From the IMG/VR virus record IMGVR_UViG_2671180275_000006: 58,225 bases of DNA, one strand, 5' to 3'. Shown here in pieces: positions 37,301-40,300 of this stretch. Position numbers: made by a program. Source of the stretch: a virus. Taxonomy: Duplodnaviria; Heunggongvirae; Uroviricota; Caudoviricetes. The number at the start of each line of letters is the position of its first letter. The first letter of the stretch is position 1.

Positions 37301-40300
37301 CAAGGCCAAAAATAGTTTGGCGGTCGTAGCGAAGGGCATCAGGCTGTTTGCGCATTGATGCCGAGATACGCTTCCAGTCTTCGCGGTCGTTGTCGATAAC
37401 TTCTTTTTTTGCCCAGCGATGGATGCTGCCGTCAATGTTTCCGGCATCCACATCACCAGGCCAGAGAGCGTAGGCCAGTTCGTCATCCAGTGTTTTCCAT
37501 GTCTGCTTGTATTCGCGATGAATGGCAGCAATGACCGGGCTGATTTTTCCTGTTGAATTTTCAGTGTACTGTTGATTGGCTCTGGCGCGGGCGAGATCAA
37601 CAACAGACGTGTATTTTCCGGTTTCCTTGCGTTCACCTTCGCGACGTTTTTTCCAGATGCGCATCTCTGCCTGAATTTCGGGCCATTTAGCACCAGGAAT
37701 ACATTTATGCTTAACCCACCCAATGGCGTGCAACTTAAGCTCCGGATACATGGCGTTAACTTCTGGCATTTTCATCAACGCTTCAACGATATGTCCGTCG
37801 AATGTTGCCATGTCTTCCTGCAACAATTCCTGTGCGCTAATAACCATATCAACGGTGATGTTTTCACATGTGTCGAACTTAACCATGACAGCGTTCTGTA
37901 CTTCAGGGGCCAGCTTGTCAAAAGTGACGTTCATCGGATCGGATTCAGTCTCAACCGGGACAAAAGAAGCAGACTCCTCATCCCAGCGGTTTTCCTGCAT
38001 ATATTCAGCATCCCATGAATCGAGGGCAGGGCGGGGTATGCCAGGTTTATCCTCGCAGACAATAAATTTATAAGCGCAGTCCTGAGCAGCCGGATAATGT
38101 TCCAGGAATTGCCAGTGAAATTTTGCTCGAGCACGGCGTTCGTCGCCAGCTTCAATGGCTGTGGCTACAGCCACAGCGCCTTCTTCCCTTGTTGCCAGTT
38201 CGTCAGGAATAGCGGCGCAAATAAAGACTTTACTCATTTTGTTTTAACCTCATGACAGATTTAAGGATGAACAAATCCCTGCCATTGCTGGCATATAAGA
38301 ATGAAACCGGATATTTATTACGGAACTGTTTTAAAGACCTGCCGGGATTTCGATATTATCCTGGTGAATAACTTTATCGACCGGGTAACAGTTACCGGGA
38401 ATTTTCTGTTCGGTTGCTGCAGTCATACACTCCTGCATTGTCCTGTGAACACTGACTGCAATATCAACTGGCACTCCGGAAACAAGAAAAACTGTCAGAA
38501 CAAGCGCAAATGCTGAATTCATTGTGCACATCCTTTTGGCATCAGACGTAAACGAGCCAGCATTGAAACAATGCATATTTTATTTAATAGCTCCCGTTCT
38601 TGTTTTCTCTTGTTAATGGCATCTTCAGTAAATACAGGGTTACTGATAGTGACACCAATTTCAAAACAACCTTCAGACGTATTAACGTTTGGTAATAACG
38701 TTTTCATTATCGCGTCCTCAACAATGAATTTTGTGATGCAGTGCCTGGTGCCTCCAGGTGACGTTAACCAGTTAACAATTAACGTCGGATACAGAGAATC
38801 CACCCATAACACTGTTTTTGGTTTTAACTGTTCCGCGTGCGCTTAGCCGCATTCACCGCATCACAAAATTCACTTTAAAAACGGCGGCAGAGCAGTCACG
38901 GAGTAAAACTGATACCGCCAAACGTCACCAGAAAATTGATAACAGAGGGCGTTGCAGCGGGGTTGTCACTTAAGCGTATGGTCAACCTGACAACTCGGTG
39001 TCCTCAACGGGGAAGGAATAACCCCGCCATACTTACCGCCGCGCCATTTTGCGGGTTGCCACAACCGGAAGCGCACGGTCGAATTAAATTTAACGACACC
39101 GTACAGCGAGACGAACTTCGCCGTGCGCTTTCGTGTTGTGTGCCTGCTTTTAACCACGTCAGGCGAGGTGGTATCCTTAAAATCACCACAGTTTTAAGGA
39201 TTCATTAAGCAATGTCGCAACCACCAATAAATCCGCTTAAGAACATGAAAATTGATTACTGGTATAAAGCGCTTACAGTTGTTGGCGCTGCGTTGTTTGT
39301 CTTTAATGGAACGTCTTTTTTTGACAGATATCCCGTTGTTCCATTGGGTTTTTTGTCCTCCGGCATCTTTTTTATTGGTTTGGGGGAGTGGATTAATCAC
39401 CCTCTCAAAGTGAGATTTATTGGTCCTGGAGTTTGGACTCGTGGATATAATAGTTCTTCGTGCGCACTCGGTATCATCTTCGACATACTTGGTTGTTTCC
39501 TGATTGTTACAGGAGTCGTCAAGTTCTTCTGATGTAAAACCGCAAATGGGGCACGTAACGGGAATTTTGAAAAGCGTTTCTCAGGGTTCCAGAACAAAAT
39601 TTTCTGCGGTCTGATTTTGCTTCTCATATTTGTGCTCCGCGTCATTGTGAGAGCACATTCTTATTCTGAGTGCCTGTTTAAACTCACTGAAGCTGAGAGC
39701 TTCTTCGCCTTCGGCAAGGCCTTCGAAGTATTCTTCGTAAGCCTTTTCCATGATTGTGTCGAAATCCATATCACTCACCTGAGTTTCTTTCCAGCCAGCG
39801 ACGGGCACCATTTTCGGTTTTAAACGTTTTGCTTTTGGTATACGTCATCGCGGTGAACGTACCGTCCTAGTTGGGGAATACGCCACATACCAGAGATTCG
39901 TTGTTGCCAAGATCGATAGTATCCATGCTGACCTCATTTCCCCTTAACGCCGGGGTAGCGGAACTGTTTGCTGAGAACACCGTGCGGTGTCTTGATGGAG
40001 GTAATTTAGTTTTCTCATTGTTTTTCGTCAAGGTTTTTTGATGAGAAAACTCAAGTATTGGCGCAAGATAAAGCCAATACATTGAAATGTAAGGCTTTAA
40101 AATTTTGTGAAGGGATGATTATTGATGCTTGTTGCGTTTGCGAGCCTCTAATAGCTCGGTGAACAGGCGATTAAAATTCTCAACGCGGGCGCGGAGTTCG
40201 CTGAGTTGTGCTTGTTGCTCTGATTTAGGAAGTGCGCGATACAAACGCAGCATCTCTAACTCATCTTCCGATAAGTCTAAGGCACTATCGAGTGAAACAG

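Follow-up and report, generated by a model that had tools for sequence, protein, structure and literature searches.

A Qin-type dicBF operon in which ydfC is exchanged for a 0.5-kb module read on both strands

In the Qin prophage of Escherichia coli K-12, the dicBF operon runs in the order ydfA-ydfB-ydfC-dicF-dicB-ydfD. The virus record IMGVR_UViG_2671180275_000006 (Caudoviricetes), a stretch of 58,225 nucleotides called the window below, carries a related operon with an open reading frame (ORF) on the opposite strand between DicF and ydfA. This raises the question of what has taken the place of ydfC, and of why the operon's own reading frame runs on across a gene that faces the other way. The locus is a mosaic variant of the Qin-type dicBF (early-left) operon, in which a 0.5-kb module read on both strands takes the place of the ydfC module. 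Judging from its substitution pattern and a structural model, the plus-strand ORF of this module is a genuine gene under purifying selection that encodes a three-helix membrane protein. The main oddity of the locus, missed by a first-pass annotation made from the sequence, is that the operon-sense frame across this gene is itself kept open.

The extent of the exchange was defined by blastn against the K-12 Qin region (NC_000913.3 1646500-1651500). The window is colinear with K-12 at 38200-39151 (K-12 1649162-1650115, 96.7%) and at 39669-39997 (ydfA-ydfB, 96.4%). The first-pass annotation had described a single block of ~650 bp, native or inserted, that included GC-rich inverted repeats; only 39152-39668 (517 bp) lacks a K-12 counterpart, and this block stands in for K-12 1648766-1649161 (396 bp), which comprises the 3' end of ydfB, ydfC and 120 bp. 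No relation was found between K-12 YdfC and the contents of the block. The repeat GTTGTCA/TGACAAC (arms 38962-38968 and 38988-38994) was recovered where it had been described, but it lies outside the swapped block: because 38200-39151 is colinear with K-12, the GC-rich repeats at 38962-38994 belong to the native ydfC-dicF region. The alternative that the annotation had envisaged, a stretch colinear with K-12 and bearing an artefactual antisense ORF, describes the locus only at 38934-39151 and fails for the ORF. The window therefore shares with K-12 ydfA, 34 ydfB codons, the spacer, dicF, dicB and ydfD, at 96-97%, with a DicA/DicC-type switch alongside (PMC5069750), and differs in lacking ydfC and the ydfB C-terminus, in carrying the two-strand module instead, and in having ydfA as a pseudogene. 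The left edge of the module is fuzzy (about 39152-39205), because K-12 keeps weak vestiges of both hairpins described below to about 39205, just past the BLAST breakpoint. The core common to unrelated prophages spans ~39128-39554 (blastn to L005, L009, L128 and L129; L numbers designate the loci compared). The elements of the module and its right-hand junction are as follows.

39152..39668, both strands: two-strand module of 517 bp, without a K-12 match by blastn
39212..39532, plus strand: gene for a predicted 106-aa inner-membrane protein with three transmembrane (TM) helices, of an unnamed family (dN/dS, homologues, AF2 model)
39194..39583, minus strand: operon-sense open frame, codon-aligned antisense to the membrane gene, with 128 codons open in the window
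39533..39580, minus strand: segment outside the overlap, encoding GETLFKIPVTCPICGF(T), with synonymous differences to L005 and pN < pS
39581..39769, minus strand: ydfB', whose first 34 codons match K-12 YdfB; the frame diverges at the junction 39668/39669

The window sequence equals NZ_CP075852.1 9640-67864, and among the genes of the host element, a fuller Qin-type prophage, are integrase, exonuclease, ydfD, dicB, rem, hokD, ydfU/T, cspB, essD and rrrQ. Of 5426 complete E. coli genomes, 796 contain the 517-bp block at a coverage of at least 80% (785 of them at an identity of at least 99%), in each case on the chromosome; the block also occurs in phage HannyBb, where only minus-strand genes are annotated. 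Thus ~15% of complete E. coli genomes have the module, yet annotation pipelines give it three conflicting treatments, PGAP annotating, in genomes that are nearly identical, either the plus ORF at 39212-39532 (WP_122990131.1, "hypothetical protein"), nothing, or a minus-strand ORF of 191 aa that begins at the ydfB ATG (WP_000344958.1, in NZ_CP066836). Both products are labelled "hypothetical", and the membrane protein is in no curated family.

The reading of the plus-strand ORF as a three-helix membrane protein, already made in the first-pass annotation, held up under closer comparison. Nei-Gojobori dN/dS in the plus frame is 0.12-0.20 against four diverged prophage copies (L128, L129, L005 and L009) and 0.07-0.33 in twelve further pairs, with substitutions mostly at third codon positions, and the gene is intact in 80/80 near-identical prophage copies. 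A word-indexed search returned 60 homologues of the protein, and an exhaustive profile search returned 486 clusters at 50% identity, almost all of 100-110 aa and spread over many phyla. Homologues at 35-57% identity share the length and the invariant motifs WYKA and G-GEW-NHP, the residues invariant in the family being W17, Y18, K19, A20, G56, G58, E59, W60, N62, H63, P64, G87 and G94. Those at 35-45% identity come from Yersinia, Pantoea, Herminiimonas, Reinekea, Pseudomonas, Shewanella and Arcobacter, and from metagenome-assembled genomes of Actinomycetes, Nitrospirales and Desulfobacteraceae. The AlphaFold (AF2) model, with a mean predicted local distance difference test (pLDDT) of 82 and a predicted template modelling score (pTM) of 0.69, places helices at residues 17-32, 42-62 and 85-105 (mean Kyte-Doolittle hydropathy 1.3-2.2) and a beta-hairpin at 65-79, and the distribution of Lys and Arg predicts an N-in, C-out topology. 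The protein had no match in Pfam, PHROGs, NCBIfam, PADLOC or PDB; at E<=1 Pfam gave only a spurious match to DUF7103 and no SieB family. Longer family members carry no informative fused domain, the matches being one PsbP_2 and one weak NMN_transporter. Despite ~100 aa with three TM helices, no holin family was matched, and a class I holin was rejected in view of a C-terminus (...VVKFF) without a charged tail, the early-left position, and the location of essD/rrrQ ~9.5 kb away.

The position of the gene gives a hint of what its product may do. In every prophage lineage that was examined (E. coli Qin-like/Rac-like, P0013-type enterobacterial phages, Yersinia, Pantoea and ~15 further IMG/VR clusters), the gene stands at the start of a repressor-controlled early operon, on the opposite strand and beside CI/Cro-type genes; outside prophages it is a lone cassette among unrelated small genes. 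The first-pass annotation had called this the classic position of exclusion functions such as sieB or rexB, which proved apt for the former and not for the latter. Like sieB of lambda and P22, the gene encodes a membrane protein, runs against the early-left (PL) operon in which it lies, is close to the immunity region, and would be expected to have a promoter of its own that acts in the lysogen; in lambda (NC_001416), sieB lies at 34482-35036 on the plus strand, with N and ral on the minus strand. In contrast, rexB lies on the cI/repressor strand and is not antisense (NC_001416), whereas the gene described here is opposite to the repressor strand and has no rexA-like partner. SieB itself differs in being 184-192 aa long, against 106 aa with three TM helices here, and shares no sequence similarity with the protein.

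An exclusion or defence role in the lysogen is our best guess for the membrane protein, although we regard it as somewhat doubtful, and several results count against it. Such a role would be deduced from position only. BLASTP of the protein against lambda SieB (E 3.2) and RexB (E 2.3) found no similarity, PADLOC-DB v2 returned 0 defence families at E<=1, fold searches with the AF2 model retrieved only generic helical bundles and were uninformative, and a guilt-by-association survey of 24 non-prophage loci found no recurrent neighbour. Should the protein nevertheless be an exclusion or defence factor, a classic prophage hotspot would gain a new family consisting of a single gene. It is also conceivable, if again doubtful, that the protein has no part in defence and instead modulates an inner-membrane protein of the host, acts as a small membrane subunit related to stress or ions, or regulates growth in the manner of a toxin. 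DicB, encoded in the same operon, modulates the host inner-membrane protein ManYZ.

The minus strand presents a different pattern. In E. coli, the operon-sense frame is composed of 34 YdfB codons, a linker and a CPxCGF segment, and then passes through the whole membrane gene to stop 16 nt beyond its ATG (stop codon 39196-39194). In 77/80 E. coli copies the frame is continuous from the ydfB ATG to 39194, forming the 191-aa ORF (phrog_35040); in the majority allele (L131) the match to phrog_35040 spans 15-205 of its 205 positions (E 1e-138), residues 1-34 match phrog_2061 (YdfB family), and the frame of the window is split by a TGA. PHROGs gives no function for phrog_35040 or phrog_2061 and does not record that phrog_35040 is mostly the reverse reading of a conserved gene. 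In the first six prophage copies examined, the codon-aligned antisense frame across the membrane gene had no stop. Stops were then counted in 17 prophage clusters less than 70% identical to each other, with expectations from each locus's own codon usage. Fifteen of the 17 lack TTA, CTA and TCA, where 0.62 stop-free clusters were expected (Poisson-binomial P 2.7e-23, a value that assumes independence among clusters of shared ancestry, justified only by the saturation of synonymous sites between them, pS 0.62-0.78). The minus frame is open over 116-280 codons in these 15 clusters, and the 17 together have 8 antisense stops against 59 expected. The controls fit the null: the 23 non-prophage homologues include 5 stop-free copies (2.3 expected) and have 131 stops (88 expected), and lambda sieB has 9 stops in the corresponding frame. 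Both frames of the antiparallel pair are therefore kept open beyond chance in the prophages, while amino-acid purifying selection in the overlap is seen on the plus frame only (omega 0.07-0.33 vs 0.6-1.7).

Outside the overlap, the N-terminal parts of the minus ORFs are conserved as protein (for example, pN 0.17 vs pS 0.74), with the motifs F..L...PGSV.ID...V.L.GW or ...IP..CP(I/V)CGF, and the ORFs carry Shine-Dalgarno sequences at the correct spacing; the upstream gene to which they are joined in frame differs from phage to phage. Within 39533-39580, the changes relative to L005 are synonymous in the minus frame, and the CP(I/V)CGF motif is kept in the E. coli, L132 and Yersinia lineages. From the N-terminal conservation, the Shine-Dalgarno sequences and the in-frame fusions, we infer that the minus ORF is translated. 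A zinc ribbon was rejected for the CPxCG motif, as the second Cys pair is not conserved and the motif stands at a different position in Pantoea; an N-like antiterminator was rejected for want of an arginine-rich N-terminus. The plus frame also remains open for 97 more codons past its single TGA (39530-39532), antisense through ydfB' (span 39212-39823), which is probably a consequence of codon alignment and mirrors the TTA, CTA and TCA codons missing from the other strand.

The frame could be kept open for the sake of its product. If the minus ORF (phrog_35040, 150-205 aa) were a functional protein, its C-terminal ~115 residues would be needed as polypeptide, for instance as a spacer or disordered tail, and stops would be excluded since truncation destroys the protein, and not since translation matters. 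Such a view accommodates the stop-free frame in 15/17 lineages, the N-terminal domain under purifying selection with its good ribosome-binding sites, and the practice of phage annotators and PHROGs, which already treat the minus ORF as a protein family; the tail is also marginally less hydrophobic than its synonymous recodings (mean z -0.6). However, minus-frame omega in the overlap reaches 0.6-1.7, with changes mostly at the first codon positions of that frame. The net charge of the tail, anywhere between -8 and +13, does not differ from that of random synonymous recodings (mean z -0.07), which gives no support to selection on tail charge. Moreover, the minus ORF stops directly after CPVC in L128 and ahead of it in the window allele. 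We consider this explanation unlikely, although a length-dependent function of the tail is possible. A frame kept open in the absence of constraint on amino acids or charge is instead read as selection for ribosome transit, and the sequence comparisons suggest that translation through the gene, rather than the tail product, is what is selected.

A further explanation, which we find improbable, is that only the plus gene matters and that the open antisense frame is a functionless by-product of descent from a single ancestor that chanced to lack TTA, CTA and TCA codons, or of gene-specific codon bias in enterobacterial phages. Of the antisense frames, -1 is in general the one in which long ORFs most readily occur; the amino acids of the minus frame are unconstrained in the overlap, stops are present in some copies, and the clusters are phylogenetically related. 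Yet synonymous sites are saturated, and of the ~59 expected stop-generating codons none occurs outside three lineages. In neighbouring phage genes these codons account for 11-50% of Leu and 6-26% of Ser, non-prophage homologues of equal GC content have 3-12 of them each, and the minus ORF shows conservation in its upstream in-frame part, together with ribosome-binding sites. Finally, the view that the plus ORF is an antisense artefact and the minus 191-aa ORF the real gene, which would agree with its omission by PGAP in most genomes, with the presence of only the minus ORF in PHROGs and with the HannyBb annotation, is effectively refuted by the third-position substitutions and low dN/dS of the plus frame, by the confident TM bundle of the AF2 model, and by the homologues in Actinomycetes, Desulfobacteraceae, Nitrospirales and Arcobacter, among others, which keep the motifs while their antisense frame is full of stops.

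Conservation is higher in the 84 bp ahead of the plus ATG than in the coding region, and three elements lie there.

39142..39166, no strand assigned: hairpin H1, GCCTG (39142-39146) and CAGGC (39162-39166), with TTAACCAC in the loop
39169..39177, plus strand: candidate extended -10 element TGGTATCCT of the plus gene, proposed from conservation
39173..39201, no strand assigned: hairpin/palindrome H2, ATCCTTAAAA-N9-TTTTAAGGAT, arms 39173-39182 and 39192-39201

Of nine aligned lineages, eight have H1 unchanged; a single compensatory pair occurs in L237 (CCGGG/CCCGG). The 10-bp palindrome H2, also noticed in the first-pass annotation, is more than chance. As RNA it folds with a dG of -9.4 kcal/mol (z -4 to -5 vs shuffles), about equally well on both strands, and six other lineages preserve it by compensatory changes, their apical stems varying but remaining complementary (AAAA/TTTT, AAAGC/GCTTT, AAAGG/CCTTT, GAAG/CTTC). 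RNAalifold lost H2 since the MAFFT alignment was out of register, and it was then judged sequence by sequence. The right arm holds both the Shine-Dalgarno sequence AAGGA of the plus gene and the stop codon of the minus frame (39196-39194). Pairing of the H2 loop ACCAC with an upstream GGUGGU, in the manner of a riboswitch, was considered and rejected, as it is not conserved in other lineages. Upstream of the ATG by 43-46 nt, TGGTATCNT is conserved in 7 lineages whose proteins are ~50-87% identical, while the flanking stems vary, and this conservation suggests that the plus gene has its own extended -10 promoter (TGGTATCCT). A generic promoter and terminator scan beside the gene found nothing convincing, TGGTATCCT falling below its threshold.

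These elements allow a mechanism to be proposed. In the lysogen, a DicA-type repressor would shut the operon off, and the membrane gene would be transcribed from its own extended -10 promoter; by analogy with the position and orientation of sieB, its product would most likely act for the lysogen in exclusion or abortive infection at the membrane. Upon derepression, RNA polymerase would have to read head-on through the membrane gene. Thanks to the open minus frame, ribosomes could follow the polymerase, and neither Rho nor pairing with the convergent mRNA would then truncate the otherwise untranslated antisense stretch. Expression of DicF, DicB and the genes downstream would ensue, with the membrane gene silenced by convergent transcription. 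Lambda, in comparison, reads through sieB with N antitermination, and its sieB, with 9 antisense stops, is not nested in an operon ORF; the operon described here has no N gene. That the open frame acts as a translational escort, by which the early operon would be read across a convergent gene with no need of N-type antitermination, is put forward tentatively. We are equally hesitant about the stronger form, a recurrent prophage switch module with a nested lysogen (defence) gene, in which the frame would be kept purely as a translational shield against Rho or antisense termination in place of N-type antitermination, and the membrane protein and the early genes (DicF, DicB) would be mutually exclusive. 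Taken as a whole, the explanation by a module swap, a real membrane gene, an open frame and inferred switch roles is in our judgement probable, if only just.

Several points weigh against the mechanism. Both strands of the module are known here from sequence alone, and a literature search by accessions, motifs and PHROG identifier retrieved no paper on either protein. The idea of a shield against Rho is weakened because ~260 nt of untranslated spacer and DicF follow immediately, as in K-12. Stops in or just before the frame are tolerated in L239/L242, L244, L137 (E. coli cluster), L128 and the window, and the shared ancestry of the 17 clusters tempers the probability given above. In addition, if H2 is active in the plus mRNA, transcription must start upstream of the proposed -10 element, which conflicts with the promoter reading.

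Each part of the proposed arrangement has a known counterpart. Cardinale et al. in 2008 and Peters et al. in 2012 are said to have found that Rho terminates untranslated and antisense transcripts and silences the early genes of cryptic prophages. The likeness proposed to such protection from Rho polarity (leader-ORF operons, cryptic-prophage silencing) is that an ORF with an irrelevant product would be translated and the polymerase would not be terminated; the known cases involve short upstream ORFs, whereas here a frame of ~120 codons crosses a convergent gene and the link to Rho is a deduction. We know of no previous description of a ~120-codon frame maintained across a convergent gene for protection from Rho. 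The paper on dicBF regulation holds no data on Rho or antisense transcription. Antiparallel overlapping genes of enterohaemorrhagic E. coli (EHEC), namely ano, asa, laoB, pop and nog1, also have a second frame antisense to an established gene, with evidence for both strands (PMC5960689, PMC6294744). In the EHEC cases, a short ORF of recent origin has been overprinted on an old gene, is usually confined to certain strains and has Ribo-seq support; in the module, by contrast, the embedded gene is old and widely conserved, the operon's own frame is open over 116-280 codons in 15 lineages, and the evidence is that of sequence. Antisense morons (sieB), overlapping antisense ORFs and protection from Rho by translation are thus each known; not found in the literature was their combination, an old conserved gene embedded in an operon frame held open across many phage lineages. 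The module offers a statistically strong natural case of an open frame selected without selection on the encoded sequence, and the long-debated persistence of long antisense ORFs could be tested directly with a few silent mutations. If ribosome transit does govern read-through, this would bear on the restraint of the toxic DicF and DicB products. Copies of DicF matter for virulence regulation in EHEC.

The window's own copy of the module was compared with 77 other copies, and three rare changes were found within 420 bp of its promoter-proximal dicBF region (39867-39869, 39581-39583 and 39452-39454). The first inactivates ydfA.

39867..39926, minus strand: ydfA pseudogene, with a Gln-to-stop change at 39869-39867; the full frame would run to about 39771

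This nonsense allele occurs in 1/77 other copies, and PGAP flags it as "internal stop". The second change, a TGA at 39583-39581, severs ydfB' from the open frame and occurs in 2/77 other copies. The same two copies carry the third, R81S in the membrane protein, which places S81 where more than 90% of the family have Arg. In view of these three changes, the module copy of the window may be partly decayed or attenuated, and the haplotype may reflect attenuation of a toxic operon in this lineage of Shiga toxin-producing E. coli. Genomes with 100% identity are S19-651, JNEC-KY179 and JNEC-KY208.

Downstream of the module in the operon sense, the native elements are retained.

38882..38934, minus strand: DicF small RNA (sRNA), 53 nt (Rfam RF00039; K-12 identity)
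38935..39151, minus strand: native untranslated spacer (DicF precursor region), colinear with K-12 1649162-1649381

The conservation of DicF, which the first-pass annotation had recognised, was confirmed by Rfam (RF00039 at 38882-38933, minus strand, 72.5 bits, E 4e-14, gathering score 48, model positions 1-52, full length) and by 52/53 nt identical to K-12 dicF. Positions 38877-38881 are the terminator U-tail of DicF, and dicB and ydfD follow downstream, as in a dicBF-type operon. The spacer is identical to K-12 at 198/217 positions; the K-12 ydfC-dicF region is likewise long and untranslated and forms part of the dicBF transcript (PMC5069750). The minus-strand RNA of 38934-39215 is modestly structured (z -2.07), and a permissive-threshold Rfam scan of 38850-39700 recovered DicF and no other family. 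DicF, the spacer and the module are contiguous also in the Rac-like loci L128 and L129 and in one Shigella copy. In L128 (5242-5430) and L129 (5257-5445), matches to the C4 antisense RNA and an isrK-like sRNA were observed just downstream of DicF, and L128 also has the RalA antitoxin RNA. In Shigella flexneri SFBU0723 (L041, 6001-6290), the module is degraded and the membrane ORF is broken after 10 codons (MSQPPINPLRT*), with an intact DicF adjoining.

Other copies of the family stand in varied surroundings. In the IMG/VR prophage contigs L215-L219 and L235, the nested pair follows a small Cro-like gene with an S24 repressor divergent from it; because of this arrangement, the module there is placed in a Cro-side early operon and not in a lambda-style PL operon. 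A tRNA gene directly adjoins the module in the early-left region of a P0013-type prophage (L005, 6207-6279, minus strand; Rfam tRNA, 51 bits). The chromosome of Arcobacter sp. Pygsuia-1 carries three identical family copies (L031, L032 and L033) with identical 6-kb flanks at three sites, which suggests carriage on a repeated mobile element. In Reinekea marinisedimentorum (L013, 106-2729), the homologue belongs to a series of six small ORFs on one strand that lack Pfam matches and are followed by a ParD-like gene, a layout reminiscent of an integron cassette array.

Elsewhere in the window, two matches to sRNA-Xcc1 (RF02221) on the minus strand, at 22830-22915 and 23366-23450 (74.5 and 53 bits), flank ant (antirepressor) genes at the end of the neighbouring prophage, just before the chromosomal ynfF. 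RNA elements were also detected on the plus strand at 44138-44312, 47607-48030 and 50508-50893, late in the Qin-type prophage: hokD is preceded by a sok antitoxin RNA, and cspB and a second csp gene each have a 5' untranslated region of the cspA thermoregulator type.

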